Position numbers and translations under genes: made by a program | Notes under the pieces: model-generated | The model's input: the letters and a program-made list of their open reading frames with translations, nothing else | Database searches by the model: none | Told to the model about the DNA's origin: nothing | In this document: in pieces, positions 3,253 through 14,507 of the stretch | How positions within the stretch are numbered: the first letter of the stretch is position 1 | Layout of the letters: each line of letters starts with the position of its first letter | Source of the DNA: a virus | Taxonomy: Duplodnaviria > Heunggongvirae > Uroviricota > Caudoviricetes | IMG/VR virus record: IMGVR_UViG_2563366838_000011 | Reading direction: 5' to 3' (one strand) | DNA: 14,507 nucleotides

Positions 3253-3456
3253 ATGGCTAATTACAATTCATTAATTCGTCTCTCTGAAGTTCAAAGGCGA
3301 ACTGGTTATAGCAAAGCATGGATTTATCGTCTTATTAGTCAGGGGAGGTTCCCTAAACAGGTAAAAATTGGAAGTCGGGCAATTGCTTTTGTTGAGTCTG
3401 AAATAGATGAATGGATTGAGAAGTGTATATTAGAATCTAGAGACGAGGTGGCCTGA
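3253..3456 (+). CDS. alpA: AlpA-family phage transcriptional regulator (small HTH DNA-binding protein)
   Basis: 67-aa ORF with AGGA 9 nt upstream; sequence LIRLSEVQRRTGYSKAWIYRLISQGRFPKQVKIGSRAIAFVESEIDEWI matches the AlpA/prophage CP4-57 regulator pattern; sits second after int as in P4-like islands and PICIs. Confidence 0.85.
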   Translation: MANYNSLIRLSEVQRRTGYSKAWIYRLISQGRFPKQVKIGSRAIAFVESEIDEWIEKCILESRDEVA

Positions 3457-4733: not shown

Positions 4734-4908
4734 GCCGACAGGAACACCACAACCTCAAAAACGCTACAAAGATGCCCACGGAGCACTCGTTACTGTCGAA
4801 AGCGTGTCTCACAACCGAGTGACGTTTTATCGCGACGGGTATCAATCGCCATGCGTACAACCGCTGGCGCGCTTCATGAAGGAGTTCGCGGAGGTTAACA
4901 AATGCTAA
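4726..4908 (+). CDS. small phage protein, DUF4222-like
   Basis: 60-aa ORF from ATG at 4726 with GGAGG 6 nt upstream, overlapping the upstream stop; pattern RYKDAHGALVTVESVSHNRVTFYRDGYQSPCVQPLARFMKEFAEV resembles small prophage proteins of the DUF4222 type (from memory). Confidence 0.5.
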   Translation: MFKPTGTPQPQKRYKDAHGALVTVESVSHNRVTFYRDGYQSPCVQPLARFMKEFAEVNKC

Positions 4909-5930
4909 CCGTCCAGAAGAAGATATTTTCACTGACTGCTATGTCGCAAAAATCCAGCAATATGACAGCAAAGTCTGGCATTAATACAGCAGATACAAGC
5001 AAAGCTTATCATTTTATGGTGGTAGGAGCGGATGCCTTAACTATGTCAGAAATTACGGTCGATGGTGTTAGCGTTGAGAAGGTCAGCGGCTGCGCCAGAG
5101 AATTTCTGGTCGTAGATGACCTGTTCTGCTCGCGTAGTGACTCCACAAAAATCTTCGTCCGCACGCGCGACGTTAACGAAATGAGCGCGATGTACTGTGC
5201 CTCTGGTTCTTCCAATAGTGAGTTTTCGGAGTCCATAAAAAAGAGCTTGCCGTTATGCGGCAACACGGTTTATGGTTATAAGGCACCTCATAAAACGGGT
5301 GCCGGGATTAGGACCCCGCAGGCAATCGAGGCGATACATGACGCGCCAGCGTCTTTTTTTGTATCGGCGCACACGCACACCTTATCAATGGTGGGCTGTA
5401 TGGGGCTGACTTCGGTCAGGCTGGTTTCCTTGATTGCCAGTAGTCCTAACCCTGTACAGTCCACCGCCAGCGAGCTTAGGACCTCCGGCGGTGGCTATAA
5501 ACCATCAATCAAGGAGGCTGCCACATGCTGGCTACTACCCCTACCCAAAAACCGCAATTTATCTGGATTATCGCCGCAGTTCGCCGCGATTGCCCGACAA
5601 TTACCGCCAAAATTCATCATATTGCTGCCGAGTCTGAACGCGATGCTCGCCGTTCTCTGGTGCGCGATCACATCTGCTTTTTTGCTGGTCGTATCCGCAT
5701 GGAGGTGGCACATGATTAAAACCTACGATGTGCATATGGATCCCCTCGAACGCACAAGCCAGATCATCACACTGACAGAAGTGATTAACGACATTCTGGT
5801 GAGCAACTCTCCCTCACGAGACGAAAGACTGAAGGCGTTACTCGCGATATTGGATCTCGCCGTTCGTGACGTTCATTTCCTGCTGGAAGGTGGACAAATG
5901 CCATGCAAAACGGGGGCAACCAATGAATAA
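4902..5930 (+). CDS. uncertain long ORF (342 codons); N-terminal about 125 codons protein-like, remainder of doubtful coding character
   Basis: ATG at 4902 overlaps the upstream stop (ATGCTAA) with GGAGG 9 nt upstream; the frame stays open for 1029 nt, but 5280-5520 translates to low-complexity S/T/P/L-rich sequence and contains hairpins and a terminator-like structure; the last 72 codons (from ATG 5712) look protein-like again. Confidence 0.3.
5340..5360 (+). terminator. terminator-like hairpin GACGC-GCCA-GCGTC followed by TTTTTTT, inside the long ORF
   Basis: 5-bp GC-rich stem, 4-nt loop, 7-T run at 5354-5360; a UUCG-tetraloop hairpin (CTGAC-TTCG-GTCAG, 5405-5418) and an 8-bp dyad (CCACCGCC...GGCGGTGG, 5461-5494) lie just downstream. 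Confidence 0.3.
5525..5719 (+). CDS. hypothetical small protein, alternative frame nested in the long ORF
   Basis: 64-aa ORF with strong SD (AAGGAGG) 7 nt upstream of ATG 5525; translation ([22 protein letters not shown]...RIRMEVAHD) is more protein-like than the overlapping frame of the long ORF. Confidence 0.35.
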   Translation: MLATTPTQKPQFIWIIAAVRRDCPTITAKIHHIAAESERDARRSLVRDHICFFAGRIRMEVAHD

Positions 5931-7542: not shown

Positions 7543-7906
7543 AAATGTAGAAATGGCGCTTAGCTCCGCAATCGGAGAGCAGGTGGCAAAGATTGCTGGT
7601 GCTGTGTGGATTCATAACCTTCATTCTACTGGTGAAGAGAAAATGGCAATTCAGACGCCAGAGGGACGCACCATTACTACATCTCTGAAGCCGTCAGATG
7701 TTTGTGATCTGATTTGCGCATTCATGTACCCAGCAATGAGGACTGTCCACGGCGATAAGTGGAAACTTGCGACAACCGCTGAATTTGATATGTGGCTAAA
7801 CAATGATGGCATGCTGACTGATTACGGAATAACCAAGTGGCAGATGCTAGTTAGCCATATCGCAAACGCTATAGACCACGTGGGGTACGGTGATGCGAAA
7901 CATTGA
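7535..7906 (+). CDS. hypothetical protein (123 aa)
   Basis: ATG at 7535 with GGGAGG upstream, overlaps the upstream stop by 8 nt and the primase start; no family recognised. Confidence 0.6.
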   Translation: MRENVEMALSSAIGEQVAKIAGAVWIHNLHSTGEEKMAIQTPEGRTITTSLKPSDVCDLICAFMYPAMRTVHGDKWKLATTAEFDMWLNNDGMLTDYGITKWQMLVSHIANAIDHVGYGDAKH

Positions 7907-10649
7907 TCTTATCCGTCAGGTTATCAGTGCGTCTGAAAACAACTGGCCTCATGTGCTGGGCTGCCTGAACATAAATGTCCCTGACTCTCCGCGCCGTCAT
8001 GCTCCCTGCCCTGCATGTGGGGGCAAAGATCGATTCCGGTTCGATGACAACGGGCGCGGTAGCTTCATCTGTAATCAGTGCGGCGCTGGTGATGGGCTGG
8101 ATTTAATTAAACGCGTAAATAACTGCGACACAACAGAGGCGGCGCTTCTTGCCGCTGATGTTCTGGGTATTGATTACCGGACAACGGAAACACCAGAAGC
8201 CACCAGCCAGAAACGGGAACAACTGGAAACCGAGCGCCAGCGACGCGAACAGGAGCGCCTGAAAAGGGCAGAGAAGGACGAACAACAAAGACGGGATACG
8301 TTTTCCCGTCAGTTTGATGACATGCGCAGAAAGGCTGTAAACGGCAAATCTGATTATCTGGTTGCGAAAGGGGTAGGTGATTTTACATTCCCCGTGTTGC
8401 CCGATGGATCTCTGTTGCTGGCGCTGGTGGATAAATCCGGCGCAGTAACAGCAGCACAGACTATTACCTCACATGGTGAAAAAAGACTCCTGACAGGTTC
8501 AGCAAAGCGAGGGGCATATCACGCCATAAACGCACCAGAAACAACACAGAGCATCTTAATCGCAGAAGGGCTGGCAACGGCATTATCTGCCCATTTAATG
8601 CGTCCAGAGGCGCTGACAGTGGCGGCGATTGATGCCGGGAACCTGTTATATGTCGCCCAGGTACTGCGGGATAAATTTCCTTCAGCACAAATCATCATTG
8701 CTGCGGATAACGACCACAGCGAAGGAAGACAAAACACGGGGAGAATAGCAGCAGAAAAAGCAGCTTTATCTGTTTCTGGATGGGTGGCATTACCCCCGAC
8801 AGATCACAAAGCAGACTGGAATGATTACCACCAAAAACACGGCATTAAATGCGCCACAGAAGCGTTCAATAAGTCAATGTACCAACCACAGGGTAATGGC
8901 GTGAAACAGGAGCCACAGACCATTGAGGGAAGCGATTTTAAGGTTATGGATACCGATCCACTGAAACCAAGAATAGAAAGCCGCGAGGATGGTATTTATT
9001 GGGTATCTCCGAGAGCTGACAGCCAGAGTGGAGAAATCATCAATAACGAAAGCTGGTTATGTTCTCCGTTAAGCGTTATCGGTACTGGCAGAGACGATAA
9101 AGACCAGTATCTCATTCTTCGCTGGCTGTCGTTTGGTTCTGAAACGCCGACAACCGCTGCCATTCCACTGGCTGATATTGGTGAACGTGAAGGATGGCGC
9201 ACACTTAAAGCTGGTGGGGTAAATGTCACGACCAAAAGCAGCCTCAGAGCAATACTGGCAGACTGGCTACAACGCAGTGGCTCTCGTGAATTGTGGCGTG
9301 TTGCTCATGCCACTGGCTGGCAATGCGGAGCGTACATCATGCCTGATGGGGAAATCATCGGAACACCTGAAAATCCTGTGCTGTTCAGCGGGAGAAGCTC
9401 AGCCGCAGCCGGATATACCGTCTCAGGGAGCGCGAAAAGCTGGCGTGATAACGTGGCGCGTCTGGCCTTTGGTAACTATTCAATGATGACCGGGATCGGC
9501 GCAGCACTGGCAGCGCCATTGATTGGGCTGGTGGGCGCTGACGGGTTCGGCATTCATTTCTATGAGCAGTCGAGCGCAGGTAAGACCACCACGGCAAACG
9601 TGGCGAGCAGCTTATACGGCAACCCTGATTTACTGCGGCTGACGTGGTACGGAACCGCGCTGGGGCTGGCAAATGAGGCCGCCGCCCACAATGACGGACT
9701 AATGCCGCTTGATGAAGTTGGTCAGGGCGCTGATCCTGTCAGCGTTTCACAGTCTGCCTATGCGTTATTTAACGGTGTAGGGAAACTGCAAGGCGCTAAA
9801 GATGGTGGAAACCGGGATCTAAAACGCTGGCGTACAGTGGCAATCAGCACCGGAGAAATGGATTTAGAAACATTTATCGCTACTTCCGGGCGAAAAACCA
9901 AAGCCGGGCAACTGGTGCGACTGCTGAATATTCCGTTGAGTAAAGCAGTACGCTTTCACGATTACCAGAACGGAAAACAGCACGCAGACGCACTGAAAGA
10001 CGCTTACCAGCATCACCACGGCGCGTCCGGGCGTGAGTGGATTAAATGGCTGGCAGACCACCAGCAACAGGCTATTAAAACCGTTCGTGACTGCGAAAGC
10101 AGATGGAGAAGCCTGATCCCATCCGATTATGGTGAGCAGGTTCACCGTGTAGCCGCGCGATTTGCCATTCTGGAGGCCGCATTGTTGTTAGGCGAGGTTG
10201 TAACAGGCTGGGATGCTCAGACATGCCGTGATGCGATACAGCACAGCTATAACGCATGGTTGCGCGAGTTCGGCACAGGTAACAAAGAGCATCAGCAGAT
10301 TATTGAACAAACGGAGGCATTTCTTAATGCCTATGGGCTTAGCCGTTTTGCACCATTTCCATACAGCCCGGCAGATTTGCCCATCAAAGATTTAGCCGGA
10401 TACCGTCAGCGTGGAGAACATGACGAAAGCCCAATGATTTTCTACACATTCCCGGCCACATTTGAAAAGGAGATCGCATGTGGTTTCAACGCAAAACAGT
10501 TTGCTGAAGTGTTGAAAAAAGCCGGGATGCTAACCCCACCAAACAGCGGTCGTGGATACCAAAGAAAATCACCACGTATTCAGGGACGACAAATAAACGT
10601 TTATGTACTCAATTACCAGCCAGGAGATTATAACTCATCTGAAGAATGA
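7893..10649 (+). CDS. primase-helicase replication protein (P4 alpha-like / PICI Pri-Rep): zinc-ribbon, TOPRIM and P-loop NTPase domains
   Basis: 918-919-aa ORF (ATG 7893, or GTG 7890 as in the track); Cys motif CPACGG...CNQCG; TOPRIM-like segment ILIAEGLATALS...IIIAADNDH; Walker A motif SSAGKTT near residue 555; iteron origin immediately downstream. Confidence 0.88.
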   Translation: MRNIDLIRQVISASENNWPHVLGCLNINVPDSPRRHAPCPACGGKDRFRFDDNGRGSFICNQCGAGDGLDLIKRVNNCDTTEAALLAADVLGIDYRTTETPEATSQKREQLETERQRREQERLKRAEKDEQQRRDTFSRQFDDMRRKAVNGKSDYLVAKGVGDFTFPVLPDGSLLLALVDKSGAVTAAQTITSHGEKRLLTGSAKRGAYHAINAPETTQSILIAEGLATALSAHLMRPEALTVAAIDAGNLLYVAQVLRDKFPSAQIIIAADNDHSEGRQNTGRIAAEKAALSVSGWVALPPTDHKADWNDYHQKHGIKCATEAFNKSMYQPQGNGVKQEPQTIEGSDFKVMDTDPLKPRIESREDGIYWVSPRADSQSGEIINNESWLCSPLSVIGTGRDDKDQYLILRWLSFGSETPTTAAIPLADIGEREGWRTLKAGGVNVTTKSSLRAILADWLQRSGSRELWRVAHATGWQCGAYIMPDGEIIGTPENPVLFSGRSSAAAGYTVSGSAKSWRDNVARLAFGNYSMMTGIGAALAAPLIGLVGADGFGIHFYEQSSAGKTTTANVASSLYGNPDLLRLTWYGTALGLANEAAAHNDGLMPLDEVGQGADPVSVSQSAYALFNGVGKLQGAKDGGNRDLKRWRTVAISTGEMDLETFIATSGRKTKAGQLVRLLNIPLSKAVRFHDYQNGKQHADALKDAYQHHHGASGREWIKWLADHQQQAIKTVRDCESRWRSLIPSDYGEQVHRVAARFAILEAALLLGEVVTGWDAQTCRDAIQHSYNAWLREFGTGNKEHQQIIEQTEAFLNAYGLSRFAPFPYSPADLPIKDLAGYRQRGEHDESPMIFYTFPATFEKEIACGFNAKQFAEVLKKAGMLTPPNSGRGYQRKSPRIQGRQINVYVLNYQPGDYNSSEE

Positions 10650-10674
10650 GCTTCTTCATGTGCGTAGAAAAGGT

Positions 10675-10785
10675 GTTGGTTCAGTTGGTTCAGTTGGTTC
10701 AATTTGTAAAGAGTATTGTTTTATAAGGATTTTATTCTTTTTATTGAACCAACACTGAACCAACAACACGGTATTTTGAACCAAC
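10675..10785 (+). repeat. iteron-type replication origin: three tandem GTTGGTTCA (10675-10701), 43-bp AT-rich spacer, three inverted copies TGAACCAAC (10745-10753, 10756-10764, 10777-10785)
   Basis: read directly from sequence; sits just 3' of the primase-helicase gene, the usual ori position in P4-like satellites and PICIs; the track ORFs overlapping it (10656-10895 minus, 10716-10967 plus) are probably spurious. Confidence 0.7.
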
Positions 10786-10836
10786 ACAATGTGACTGAAT
10801 TGATGCGCACAACACCTGGCTGGCATCAGAGAGTGT

Positions 10837-10911
10837 TTTACGAGACTTTCGTAAAATCCTGTGTACAAGGGCGTGACGTTTTTGAAAGTGAGCACTACGA
10901 AATTTTCGTAG
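10837..10911 (+). promoter_or_regulatory. two related dyads TTTACGA-N5-TCGTAAA (10837-10855) and CTACGAA-ATT-TTCGTAG (10895-10911); candidate operator pair
   Basis: 7-bp perfect inverted arms sharing an ACGA/TCGT core, about 58 bp apart, in the non-coding region between the ori and the downstream operon. Confidence 0.3.
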
Positions 10912-11105
10912 TTCAGAAAACAGCCTCTGAGAAGTTGTTATGCCTGTTCAGCAAACCATCCGCATAGCTGATCGCGAATCAAATTACCAATGGAGCCAGA
11001 AGCAAGGGCAGAACTGAAAAGCGCCTGCCGTGAAGAGTAATGCGACACCATAAATATAGTTTTTAGAGTCCATAAAAAACCTGTCAAAACCTGACACACA
11101 GAACG

Positions 11106-11138
11106 ATGCCACCAGCTACTGAGCGGTGGCATTTTTTT
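11106..11138 (+). terminator. rho-independent terminator (8-bp stem ATGCCACC / GGTGGCAT, 11-nt loop, then TTTTTTT)
   Basis: perfect 8-bp GC-rich stem at 11106-11113 / 11125-11132 followed by 7 T at 11132-11138; oriented for + strand transcripts. Confidence 0.55.
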
Positions 11139-11233
11139 GTGCTATTTGTTTCATATTTTGCAATTACGATGATGAATATTGCGATTTGTGAAACTATAAT
11201 AACTGTTGTTTTATACAGTTCTAAGGGGGCGTT

Positions 11234-11395
11234 ATGGCTATTTCAGTAAAGCCGGTATTGATAAGTGAGAAGCAAATGGAAGCGATAAAGAAAATTCAGG
11301 AAGAGCAGCGTAAAAAATCAGGAATTGGAGTAGCGCCAACTCTGCATGAAATTGCACGAGGGTTAATAGATAAGGCGCTGGCAGGCTGTATGTGA
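11234..11395 (+). CDS. small protein (53 aa), possible ribbon-helix-helix-type DNA-binding regulator
   Basis: not in the ORF track (below its length cutoff); ATG at 11234 with AAGGGGG upstream and a TATAAT box at 11195-11200; translation MAISVKPVLISEKQMEAIKKIQEEQRKKSGIGVAPTLHEIARGLIDKALAGCM has a strand-helix-helix layout compatible with an RHH fold (inference). Confidence 0.45.
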   Translation: MAISVKPVLISEKQMEAIKKIQEEQRKKSGIGVAPTLHEIARGLIDKALAGCM

Positions 11396-11411
11396 AAATG
11401 GATGGCATCGC

Positions 11412-11873
11412 ATGGAACTAAAATTTATTGATAACCCTGTGCGATTACAGGCCTTTCTTAACGAGCCAGGCAATACCGAAAATATTGTTGAGCCGGGGCA
11501 CACGTACTACATCAAGCCTGATGCGGTATATCTCGGCATCTACGAAGGATTAGTGCTGGCTGGCGTTCATGAAGTGCGTAACTTCTGGCATAGCGTTGTT
11601 GAATGCCATGCGGTGTACGACCCCGGATTCCGTGGTGAATATGCACTGCAAGGACATCGATTATTCTGCAAATGGCTTCTCGAAAACTCACCATTCCTTA
11701 ACAGCATCACTATGGTTCCTGACACCACGAAATACGGACGGGCAATTATCCGTTTGCTTGGCGCTACCCGTGTTGGTCACCTTGATGATGCTTATATCAG
11801 ATGTGGTAAACCCGTCGGCGTAACGCTTTATCAGTTAACTCGGCAACAATATAAGGAATTCAGCGAATGTTAA
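11412..11873 (+). CDS. hypothetical phage protein (153 aa), first gene of the virion-protein-like operon
   Basis: ATG at 11412, 17 nt after the small ORF; its stop overlaps the next start (ATGTTAA); no family recognised; occupies the position of P22 gp14 in a 14-7-20-16-like gene order (positional inference only). Confidence 0.6.
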   Translation: MELKFIDNPVRLQAFLNEPGNTENIVEPGHTYYIKPDAVYLGIYEGLVLAGVHEVRNFWHSVVECHAVYDPGFRGEYALQGHRLFCKWLLENSPFLNSITMVPDTTKYGRAIIRLLGATRVGHLDDAYIRCGKPVGVTLYQLTRQQYKEFSEC

Positions 11874-12544
11874 TTACCCATATAGCTCATAAACATCTCA
11901 ATCGTGCCGTATACGAAAAAGGCGGTGATGGTGGTGCCTCTAAAGCTCAGGCGAAGGCCCAGCAGCAGGCAATTGATTTGCAGCGCGAGCAGTGGAATAC
12001 GGTGATGAATAATCTCAAGCCGTATGCAGAAGTCGGATTGCCTGCTTTACAACAACTACAAGGACTGATGACTCTGGAAGGGCAGAATAAAGCCGCGAAT
12101 GATTTCTTTGGTTCTGGTTTATATAAAACACAGGCAGATCAGGCCCGTTATCAGAACCTTGTCTCAGCAGAAGCTACCGGGGGGCTTGGCTCAACAGCTA
12201 CCAGTAACCAGTTATCTTCCATTGCGCCCATGCTTTATAACAATTGGCTTAGTGGGCAAATGCAAAATTATGGAAACCTGCTAAATGTCGGGATGAATGC
12301 GGCATCAGGGCAGGCAACGGCAGGGCAAAACTACGCCAATAATACCGGACAACTCTTGCAGGGGCTTGGCGCTATTCGTGCAGGTCAGGCGCAGCAGCCA
12401 TCCAGTCTTGCGCGTGGTATTGGTGGGGCAGCATCAGGCGCTTTAGCGGGTGCGCAACTTGGTTCCGTTGTTCCTGGAATAGGAACTGCGGCCGGCGCTA
12501 TTGGTGGTGGGCTTATTGGTCTTGTTGGGGGGCTTGGATTCTAA
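11867..12544 (+). CDS. putative phage DNA-ejection/internal virion protein with C-terminal glycine-zipper segment
   Basis: 225-aa ORF with AAGGA upstream; Gln/Asn/Ala-rich middle; C-terminus GIGGAASGALAGAQLGSVVPGIGTAAGAIGGGLIGLVGGLGF made of GxxxG/GxxxA repeats typical of membrane-inserting glycine zippers; size and position resemble P22 gp7-type ejection proteins (inference). Confidence 0.6.
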   Translation: MLITHIAHKHLNRAVYEKGGDGGASKAQAKAQQQAIDLQREQWNTVMNNLKPYAEVGLPALQQLQGLMTLEGQNKAANDFFGSGLYKTQADQARYQNLVSAEATGGLGSTATSNQLSSIAPMLYNNWLSGQMQNYGNLLNVGMNAASGQATAGQNYANNTGQLLQGLGAIRAGQAQQPSSLARGIGGAASGALAGAQLGSVVPGIGTAAGAIGGGLIGLVGGLGF

Positions 12545-13863
12545 TGGCGACATGGCAACTTGGCGGGCTGCCTAGCATGGCACCGCAAAATGATAATGCT
12601 CCTCGTTCTTCCGTTCCTCAGCCTGTGCAGTATCAGCAGCAGCCAAACGTAGGTTTAATGGCGCTACAGGGGCTAAGAGGCGTTGCTGAGATTAATCAGC
12701 AGGCGCAAATTTCCCAGCAGCTAAAAGAATATCAGGCACGGTTGGGTAGTGCGGTAGCTAATAATGATCGTGTTGGCGTGCATAAGTTAATGGCCCAGTA
12801 TCCCCAGTTTATGGCTGATTCTCAAAAACAGATGGGATTCATTGATGCTGAGCAAAATCGGCAGACCGCTGACGCTGCCATGAATCTGCGTCTTGCGTCA
12901 CAAACTGGAGATCCACTGACCATGCAGAAGGCCATTCAGCAGGCAAATCCAGTATTACAGCGATTTGGTCTTCCTGCTGAAGAGGTTTATCAGTCTTGGC
13001 AGAATGACCCACAGGAATTCAACAGAATCACTGACCTCATCCACCTCCATGCTGATCCAAATAGTTACTTTAGTGTTCAAGAGAAGCAGCAAGGGCAGAG
13101 TATTGCACAGCAGAACGCAGATACATCTGCATATAATGCTCAGGTTAATGCGGAGCAGGGTAATCGGCGGCTCGATATGGAGCAGTTCAAAGTCCTATCC
13201 GATAACCAACTACGCACGAGAGAAATGGTTCTGAAAGCACGACTTGGACGTGCTCAAAATGACATCGAGAGAGACAAGCTCAATGCTGAACTGAGCAAGG
13301 TACAGCAGGCGAAAGTGGAGAAGATGAACGATAAAATTAATACTGTTGCAGGTAATATCGACTCCTTGAACTCTGCGCTTGAAGTGGGTCATGAACTGGC
13401 GGGAATTGTAGGGAAACATCCTTCGGCCGTTACCCGTTCGCAGAACTATAACCCCCTGACGCTGGGGTTTGGATTCCTCCCTGATGTAGCAGAAGACACA
13501 CGAAGCCTACGCGCCAAAGCTGATGAATACAACCTAAAGGTTATTCTGCCTAGCCTAAAAGGTACTTTTGGCTCTAACCCAACCGAAGGGGAAAGGGCTG
13601 CCCTTATGCAATCTCAAAATGGCATTAAGTCAGCAACCAGCAATGAGGCATTTTTGCGAGAGTTGAATAAAGCGCAGGACGTAATTATTCGAATGCAGAA
13701 ACGACAGATTGCCGGGCTCGGTATTCCTGTAACCAAATCTAAGGACGAAGAAACTGATACCAAAATGCTGTTGCAGGATCCTTCACTGGTTAAGGATTAT
13801 GTGACCGCACATGGCTATCTGCCGGAAAGTTACTATCAGGCAAAACTTAAGGGATGGCAATGA
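12544..13863 (+). CDS. putative phage ejection/internal virion protein, Gln-rich coiled-coil protein (439 aa)
   Basis: start overlaps the upstream stop (TAATG); very Gln/Ala/Asn-rich with heptad-like charged stretches (LRTREMVLKARLGRAQNDIERDKLNAELSKVQQAKVEKMNDKIN); no family recognised; positional analog of P22 gp20 or T7 gp15 (inference). Confidence 0.6.
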   Translation: MATWQLGGLPSMAPQNDNAPRSSVPQPVQYQQQPNVGLMALQGLRGVAEINQQAQISQQLKEYQARLGSAVANNDRVGVHKLMAQYPQFMADSQKQMGFIDAEQNRQTADAAMNLRLASQTGDPLTMQKAIQQANPVLQRFGLPAEEVYQSWQNDPQEFNRITDLIHLHADPNSYFSVQEKQQGQSIAQQNADTSAYNAQVNAEQGNRRLDMEQFKVLSDNQLRTREMVLKARLGRAQNDIERDKLNAELSKVQQAKVEKMNDKINTVAGNIDSLNSALEVGHELAGIVGKHPSAVTRSQNYNPLTLGFGFLPDVAEDTRSLRAKADEYNLKVILPSLKGTFGSNPTEGERAALMQSQNGIKSATSNEAFLRELNKAQDVIIRMQKRQIAGLGIPVTKSKDEETDTKMLLQDPSLVKDYVTAHGYLPESYYQAKLKGWQ

Positions 13864-14370
13864 TGGCACAACTGACAGAAAAACAGAAAGCCTATTCCCG
13901 TCATCTCGATGAAAAATATGGTTTCCCATCAGGGACGATGGAAACATTAGTTGGCAATGAATCTAGTGGTAACGGAAGTGCCGAGTCACCGAAAGGAGCT
14001 AGAGGATTTGCTCAACTGATGCCCTCAGTAATGAGTGATGCTGGTTATCGTGGAACAGATCCGCGCTCACTGCCATTTGAAAAGCAAATGGATATCGCAG
14101 CAAACCATCTCAATAAAGGAATGAAGCGATTTGGTGATATAGGTATGGCATTGGCTGGGTATAATTCTGGCTATGCTCGTATTAATGCCGTAAGAAACGG
14201 TAAATCTACACTGCCAGATGAAACGGCTAATTACGTAAGTAAATTTGCAGATGCCGGAATAATCCCTGATGACAGTGAAATCTTGCAGTTTGCACAAACC
14301 AGTCAACATCGCAATCTTCAGCAGCCTGACTACTCAGAGCTTGATAAAGAAATCTCTCAGGTGGGAGATA
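13860..14370 (+). CDS. lytic transglycosylase (SLT) domain protein, N-terminal part of a phage internal virion/ejection-type protein, interrupted by an IS insertion
   Basis: ATG at 13860 (AAGGG 6 nt upstream, overlaps the upstream stop); SLT family-1 motifs in order: ES in VGNESSGN, GFAQLMP, AGYNSGY; the frame runs without a stop into the IS terminus at 14371, so the native 3' part is displaced. Confidence 0.6.
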
Positions 14371-14507
14371 TGAACCGCCCCGGGTTTCCTGGAGAGTGTT
14401 TTATCTGTGAACTCAGGCTGCCAGATCATCGTTTCCGATGGAAGCATAATAAGCTTTTTCTGCTTCTGCCGGAGGAGTATGGCCCAGCCTTTCCAGCAAT
14501 CGTCGAT
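14371..14507 (-). mobile_element. IS3-family insertion sequence terminus (IS629/IS1203-like), partial, continues beyond the window
   Basis: sequence from 14371 (TGAACCGCCCCGGGTTTCCTGGAGAGTG...) matches my recollection of the IS629 terminal inverted repeat; the minus strand encodes a typical IS3-family OrfB C-terminus. Confidence 0.7.
14413..14507 (-). CDS. IS3-family transposase OrfB, C-terminal fragment (5' end outside the window)
   Basis: minus-strand translation ends ...RRLLERLGHTPPAEAEKAYYASIGNDDLAA with stop TGA (complement of 14413-14415). Confidence 0.7.
   Translation of the reverse strand, partial: RRLLERLGHTPPAEAEKAYYASIGNDDLAA

Follow-up and report, generated by a model that had tools for sequence, protein, structure and literature searches.

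The stretch of DNA considered here (the window; 14,507 nucleotides from IMG/VR virus record IMGVR_UViG_2563366838_000011) raises the question of why an element with the genes of a phage satellite would carry, beyond its replication module, a block of genes resembling those of the DNA-ejection proteins of podovirus P22. An original prediction, made from the window alone, had offered three options for this block (positions 11412–14370): the remnant of a degraded or fused P22-like prophage, cargo that modifies the ejection machinery of a helper phage, or a repurposed envelope-acting module. The second option is the best supported of the three. The explanation favored here, with moderate confidence when taken as a whole, is that the block is a module integral to, and under selection in, a satellite that loads its own ejection proteins into the capsids of its helper. 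The incorporation, delivery function, timing and advantage are proposed from sequence.

The four ejection genes and the island that carries them

The block is composed of four translationally coupled open reading frames (ORFs) on the + strand, with successive overlaps of 7, 1 and 1 nt (of the ATGA/TGATG type) and with the positions and sizes originally predicted. The first (11412–11873, 153 amino acids) is a homologue of P22 gene 14 (Pfam DUF2824, 1.5e-61; phrog_651, 1e-66). Its product is 84% identical to gp14 of the P22-like phage Kapi1 and 23% identical to P22 gp14, and the gene has 81–87% nucleotide identity with E. coli P22-like phages. The second (11867–12544, 225 amino acids) matches Pfam PF25688 P22_gp7 (6.6e-73, 245.8 bits against a cut-off of 28) and is 56% identical to P22 gp7 and 58% identical to Kapi1 gp7. 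Its glycine-rich tail (36% Gly, seven GxxxG motifs) is the glycine zipper that had been noticed in the sequence, and both this zipper and a KGG maturation motif at the mature amino terminus are retained, the latter without variation. The third (12544–13863, 439 amino acids) is a homologue of P22 gp20 (PF16928 Inj_translocase, 2.3e-22, 80.2 bits against a cut-off of 29.7; phrog_917 and phrog_2534, 1e-42 to 2e-44). It is rich in glutamine as described (11.4%), 28% identical to P22 gp20 over the amino terminal 200 residues, 26% identical to Kapi1 gp20, and under purifying selection with a ratio of nonsynonymous to synonymous substitution rates (dN/dS) of 0.07–0.12. The best-conserved regions of the island proteins are the amino terminal parts of gp7 and gp20.

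The fourth ORF (13863–14370) comprises the 5' 169 codons of a gene in which an SLT domain is fused to gp16. The transglycosylase domain is complete (Pfam SLT, 1e-13) with motifs ES33, GFAQ48 and GYNSG99 intact, while the gp16 body has been lost to an insertion sequence (IS) whose junction lies exactly at 14370/14371. A 76-amino-acid core is 46% identical to P22 gp16. The full-length gene could be examined in E. coli DLI.6n (locus L001), which is 99.98% identical to the window up to the IS and has no insertion in gp16. There, the intact protein of 906 amino acids presents the SLT domain at residues 14–138 followed by the gp16 body (phrog_770, 5e-120, residues 187–862; PF26808 Phage_P22_gp16); a match to phrog_342 was confined to the SLT domain. 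Island gp16 is 24% identical to that of Kapi1. A search of the PDB by sequence identified no relatives of the gene-14 homologue or of the SLT-gp16 protein. Since the gp16 gene is disrupted by the IS, the window copy of the block is probably defective.

From the family and pairwise searches, the four genes are true homologues of P22 genes 14, 7, 20 and 16 arranged in P22 gene order, and the predicted resemblance held in every detail. The comparison that had been drawn between the last protein and T7 gp16 with its amino terminal transglycosylase was also borne out. T7 gp14, gp15 and gp16 are functionally analogous in that three internal proteins form a trans-envelope channel and the largest bears an amino terminal lytic transglycosylase; however, homology between the T7 core proteins and those of the island is limited to the SLT domain, and the island proteins belong to P22 families.

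The element itself is, by its sequence, a phage-inducible chromosomal island (PICI) of the EcCIMP1 type and a satellite of P22-like podoviruses, with helper dependence taken from the literature on an island that is ~98% identical to it at the nucleotide level over the length of the window. EcCIMP1 is a 19,963-bp PICI of E. coli MP1 that resides in tRNA-Thr beside proA with the att core TCCTATTATC (Pick, Stadel and Raivio, ISME J 2025, PMC11773190). It was observed to excise and circularize only in the presence of the P22-like temperate phage Kapi1 (vB_EcoP_Kapi1), required alpA and int, and was transduced by Kapi1 at low frequency (PMC11773190). In the window, proA is the opening gene and is followed by the integration target, tRNA-Thr (CGT) (1369–1444, + strand, identified by ARAGORN and Rfam), within which the same att core lies at 1428–1437. 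The second copy, attR, is found 24.9 kb downstream at 30350–30359 of L001. As the att cores flank it, the ejection block lies inside the mobile unit, and the sequenced boundaries of EcCIMP1 likewise enclose it (PMC11773190). The window integrase is a tyrosine recombinase (1610–2824, + strand; Pfam Arm-DNA-bind_3, Phage_int_M and Phage_integrase) that is 100% identical to the EcCIMP1 integrase. Further along the + strand are an AlpA regulator (3253–3456), the counterpart of which is the master regulator in EcCIMP1, and a primase/replicase with Zn-ribbon, Toprim and DUF927 regions (7890–10649; Pfam; phrog_1139 DNA primase, 2.4e-178). An AntA-type antirepressor and several small ORFs are also present.

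The window therefore shares with EcCIMP1 the tRNA-Thr site between proA and the yagU side, the att core, the gene order and the five-gene unit after the primase, and the RefSeq annotation of MP1 gives the same genes; it differs in the insertion within gp16. In the publication on EcCIMP1, genes EcCIMP1_017–019 were labelled as DNA transfer/DUF2824 genes and considered packaging candidates, no phage-like structural genes were identified, and neither the 14-7-20-16 ejection set nor its cassette variation was recognized (PMC11773190). The satellite context of int, alpA, primase and ori that had been read from the sequence is thus that of a PICI with an experimentally demonstrated P22-like helper. 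The features expected of a Gram-negative PICI are present (an integrase at a tRNA att site, AlpA, an ori next to the primase/replicase gene, and a length of ~10–20 kb). The usual definition also calls for an absence of phage structural and lysis genes, and it holds here in part, with three virion-internal proteins being encoded.

Conservation, cassette exchange and the putative control region of the operon

The distribution of the islands was surveyed from protein-database matches and contig look-ups, and a scan of species-representative genomes with gp20 gave two loci. The architecture of int, alpA, antirepressor, primase, optional cargo, a 53-amino-acid ORF and 14-7-20-16 is shared by islands of Salmonella, Leclercia, Serratia and Pectobacterium and by one on a metagenomic contig. 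All ORFs are intact, and between the E. coli copies and those of Salmonella and Leclercia, dN/dS is 0.06–0.12 at a synonymous divergence (dS) of ~1–2.4. Three query segments were found in 71, 253 and 318 of 5,426 complete E. coli genomes, respectively, at a coverage of at least 80%.

Among nearly identical E. coli islands, the last two genes of the block are exchanged for those of other types. In three islands (L012, L013 and L017), the 53-amino-acid ORF, gp14 and gp7 are 99–100% identical to those of the window, and from about codon 54 of gp20 onward, the sequence switches to gp20 and gp16 of different types. Those of L012 are of the Kapi1 type (66% and 41% identical). In L018, which carries a third type, and in the metagenomic island L021, the 53-amino-acid ORF is followed directly by gp20 and gp16, and gp14 and gp7 are missing. 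Over the island variants, the minimal conserved cargo is the gp20 and gp16 pair. In a neighbor-joining tree, island gp20 proteins occupy at least three separate positions among those of phages, and the window type forms a clade of its own across several genera. Complete prophages hold gp20 homologues of at most 51% identity.

The P22-like phages (Lederbergvirus) share with the island the protein families, the gene order, the coupling, the gp7 maturation motif, the glycine zipper and the amino terminal part of gp20. Fusions of SLT to gp16 are also found in genuine P22-like phages, namely Dewey and Huey (46.5% identity, residues 19–901), and in complete prophages of Klebsiella electrica and Serratia. 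The ejection genes of P22-like phages lie within a late operon, whereas those of the island are headed by the 53-amino-acid ORF and a promoter-like region of their own. Unlike these phages, the island is a 20-kb satellite that lacks coat, portal, scaffold, terminase, tail and lysis genes.

The region between the primase and gene 14 may be considered in terms of four elements. A candidate replication origin (10673–10787, no strand assigned) was identified by a repeat search directly after the primase stop codon. It presents three GTTGGTTCA iterons, an AT-rich spacer and three inverted TGAACCAAC iterons, each 9 nt in length, and is likely a typical iteron origin of the island. A hairpin and T-run resembling an intrinsic terminator (11097–11141, + strand; hairpin and repeat search) stands between the replication module and the ejection operon; the islands of Salmonella and Leclercia retain the hairpin, though its stem differs in sequence. 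Next is a promoter-like region (11157–11200, + strand) that is conserved when five E. coli, Salmonella and Leclercia islands are aligned. In it, the position of a weak -35 element upstream of an invariant and perfect -10 TATAAT (11195–11200) is overlapped by an imperfect inverted repeat (TTGCAAT, 13 nt, ATTGCGA) that resembles an operator or an activator site of the ejection operon. Only chance-level matches to known RNAs were obtained in the spacer from 10600 to 11450.

The fourth element is the 53-amino-acid ORF (11234–11395, + strand) at the head of the operon. It is present in every island variant, including those of E. coli, Salmonella, Leclercia, Serratia and Pectobacterium and one metagenomic island, with a dN/dS of 0.03–0.14. 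The placement of four genes after an ori was therefore correct with regard to a plausible origin and incomplete with regard to the transcription unit, to which this conserved ORF also belongs. No family match for the ORF was identified in Pfam or PHROGs, and a search of the PDB by sequence was empty. An AlphaFold model consisted of two helices (predicted local distance difference test score, pLDDT = 78) for which Foldseek gave no match. A ribbon-helix-helix regulator was considered as a candidate and found to be unsupported, as an hhalign comparison with an Arc/Mnt alignment returned a probability of 1%.

Could the block nevertheless be the functionless leftover of a P22-like prophage, brought in by tandem integration, recombination or IS-mediated deletion? 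Its gene order is that of P22-like prophages, its gene-14 homologue is close to those of E. coli phages at the nucleotide level, and ISs are found in and near it. In spite of this, neither flank of the block holds genes for coat, portal, terminase, tail or lysis functions in the relatives that are free of the IS, EcCIMP1 among them; downstream of the block are a 232-amino-acid predicted lipoprotein, PerC and small ORFs, and then core genes. A tblastn search with P22 terminase, portal, coat, gp4, gp10, gp26 and gp9 found none of them in the island loci and all of them in true prophage loci. A major capsid protein, portal or terminase belonging to the island itself is missing from the window and from L001 and L014, two relatives that are complete. 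The block also lies within experimentally mapped excision boundaries, recurs with the same junction across five genera, its ORFs being intact and its dN/dS ~0.1, and contains gp20 and gp16 cassettes that have been exchanged rather than decayed. Homology to Kapi1 begins exactly at the gene-14 start codon, and therefore a remnant of gp26 is absent. On this evidence, the prophage remnant was rejected and is regarded as very improbable. Two findings had been named in advance as telling against an ejection module in a satellite, namely placement of the proteins in non-virion families and a full prophage late region in IS-free relatives. Both were looked for, and neither was made.

A proposed role in DNA delivery and its rivals

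In P22, gp7, gp20 and gp16 enter procapsids by way of the scaffolding protein, using the amino terminal parts of gp7 and gp20, and are dispensable for the formation of DNA-filled heads (PMC8402733). All three ejection proteins (E-proteins) are needed for DNA delivery, and foreign sets with only 22–26% identity are taken into the particle and work in P22 provided that gp20 and gp16 are from the same phage (PMC10883804). Mixed gp16 and gp20 pairs of P22 and Sf6 result in non-infectious particles (PMC10883804). Exclusion by SieA targets gp20 and gp16, escape maps to these two, and the HK620 set escapes it (PMC10883804).

With these properties in mind, the following sequence of events is proposed. 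During lytic growth of the helper, the island would excise and replicate from its primase and ori, and the operon that begins at the 53-amino-acid ORF would then be transcribed, the timing being conjectural. The helper scaffolding protein may recruit island gp7, gp20 and gp16 into helper procapsids. In the next cell, the island E-proteins would exit the particle first and build a trans-envelope conduit, with the SLT domain cutting peptidoglycan, and the island DNA would enter through this conduit. The likely benefit is independence from the ejection-protein type of the helper, or entry into cells that exclude that type, because the minimal cargo of gp20 and gp16 is a co-adapted pair and the target of SieA-type exclusion.

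Several points weigh against this proposal. The expression of the island proteins on induction and their presence in particles are predictions from sequence. Kapi1 transfers EcCIMP1 at low frequency, its titres are unaffected by the island, and a Kapi1-like prophage is present in just 2 of the 21 EcCIMP1 strains (PMC11773190). Island gp20 and gp16 are just 26% and 24% identical, respectively, to those of Kapi1, the proven helper, and if both sets were loaded, mismatched gp20 and gp16 pairs might be non-functional as they are for P22 and Sf6. Part of the divergence underlying the dN/dS values could have accumulated in phages before transfer. Finally, the module is sometimes lost: gp16 carries an IS in the window and, inserted elsewhere in the gene, in strain M15, and one copy has decayed (L022).

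Other roles may be considered for the same genes. The proteins could act against phages, with mismatched gp20 and gp16, made in the resident cell or built into helper particles, poisoning the ejection of the helper or of related phages, or blocking incoming DNA, as a form of interference or superinfection exclusion. In keeping with this, EcCIMP1 adds to superinfection immunity against Kapi1, solely in Kapi1 lysogens, and known defense systems were not found in it (PMC11773190); the P22/Sf6 mixing experiments provide a precedent for poisoning, and the gp20 and gp16 types of the island are strongly unlike those of the helper. However, post-induction titres of Kapi1 were not lowered by EcCIMP1 (PMC11773190), the island proteins have no signal peptides while incoming conduits assemble from outside, and poisoning would also harm the particles that carry the island. 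The predicted lipoprotein downstream is in addition a more conventional candidate for exclusion. An anti-phage role is thus unlikely, although it has a better chance than the remaining alternatives.

Service in packaging or capsid morphogenesis, which Pick et al. suggested from the position of the genes after the primase, would fit the location of such modules in other PICIs and the label of head morphogenesis attached to DUF2824/phrog_651. Yet all but one of the four proteins are homologous specifically to gp7, gp20 and gp16, which in P22 act in delivery and are not needed for DNA-filled assembly; scans for small terminase, Rpp-like and scaffold-like matches found none; and the variants without a gene-14 homologue retain gp20 and gp16. 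This role is considered improbable. The island could alternatively be a reservoir of gp20 and gp16 cassettes that recombine into P22-like phages, to the benefit of the helper or the phage population and with no direct role in transfer. A reservoir would be compatible with the abrupt mosaic junctions seen at gene borders and within the amino terminus of gp20, with the interleaving of island and phage gp20 in the tree, and with the report that EcCIMP1 helps its helper in another manner, through excisionase crosstalk. It leaves unexplained both the dedicated, conserved promoter region with its 53-amino-acid leader ORF and the fact that the entire block has long co-diverged vertically within islands. 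The reservoir role is considered about as improbable as packaging. The third of the original options, a repurposed envelope-acting module, is a minor rival.

The gene of the predicted lipoprotein lies past the end of the window, immediately 3' of gp16 where that gene is intact (L001, 22082–22780). It encodes a conserved protein of 232 amino acids with a lipoprotein signal peptide and lipobox (MIKNLLLILSLSLLAGC; lipobox LLAGC). In the Salmonella islands the protein is 89% identical with a dN/dS of 0.04, and no family match was identified in Pfam or PHROGs. It is a candidate for the source of the superinfection immunity provided by EcCIMP1. The small ORFs 3' of gp16 in islands and prophages showed no similarity to P22 SieA.

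Satellites redirect capsid size or packaging, or build their own capsids. The capsid-forming PICIs (cf-PICIs) and the capsid-remodelling satellites of the P4 and SaPI types also encode some virion-related proteins and take the rest from the helper, and what they encode are capsid, portal, terminase or size-redirecting proteins. In contrast, the island described here encodes solely internal proteins that exit the capsid to form a DNA conduit. Literature searches for satellites with ejection proteins returned the EcCIMP1 paper alone, and no satellite was found described as supplying envelope-crossing DNA-delivery proteins. The island has thus been published already, and what appears to be newly recognized is a complete, selected and cassette-swapping ejection module in a satellite.

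If island proteins are indeed loaded into helper capsids, phages and satellites would both compete and cooperate at a new point, the ejection apparatus, and the extreme diversity of gp20 and gp16 among P22-like phages would have an extra driver. Extended further, and more tentatively, EcCIMP1-type islands may form a distinct class of satellites that pirate the helper at the step of DNA delivery, replacing its conduit with an interchangeable gp20 and gp16 cassette and gaining entry past SieA-like exclusion by resident P22-like prophages. This extension is possible but doubtful; were it true, ejection-protein type would determine the host range of the satellite and its compatibility with helpers. 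A tractable combination for such studies exists in E. coli MP1, EcCIMP1 and Kapi1. The islands are common in E. coli, occur in several other enterobacterial genera, and carry regulators, PerC for instance, with effects on the expression of virulence genes.

Additional features of the islands

The IS that breaks the gp16 gene makes up the end of the window (14371–14507, - strand), where its terminal part is 100% identical to that of an annotated IS3-family element in L001. One 1.3-kb element of this family has inserted independently in different strains (L001, 14204–15417; L019, 12607–13820; and the window). In DLI.6n it lies in the primase gene; in the window and in M15 it lies in gp16, at two different positions; and M15 also has it between small ORFs. 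The islands are frequent targets of ISs.

Two RNAs were identified by Rfam on the + strand of the window, isrK (5283–5359, 63 bits) and an antisense RNA of the C4/CI type (5384–5471, 80 bits). These point to an RNA-based immunity in the island similar to that of P4 and P1. Both fall inside a 342-amino-acid ORF (4902–5930) that is annotated elsewhere as an ash family protein, and their presence raises doubt about this ORF call. Among the ORFs scanned, which did not include every small ORF, there was no match to the Sid, Psu and Delta families; the C4/CI-type RNA and a large primase are present.

The replication module is mosaic too, since the carboxy terminal halves of the primases differ between islands with identical flanking genes (DUF5906 in L012, 4602–6953, as opposed to DUF927 in the window, 7890–10649). 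Islands with the DUF5906 primase have two additional ORFs ahead of the ejection operon. A short relative of the block is found outside of the islands: many O157:H7 genomes contain a 287-bp fragment with 97.6% identity to the gene-14 homologue that is annotated as DUF2824 (e.g., NZ_CP017444.1, 1522572–1522858), which presumably belongs to the remnant of a P22-like prophage unrelated to the island. Lastly, the islands have variable cargo, either downstream of the ejection operon or in the interval that separates it from the primase. In the Salmonella islands this includes a ProQ-domain protein and two unknown ORFs (L003, 6531–8450), and the metagenomic island carries an Abi_2 abortive-infection gene (L021, 16471–17433).

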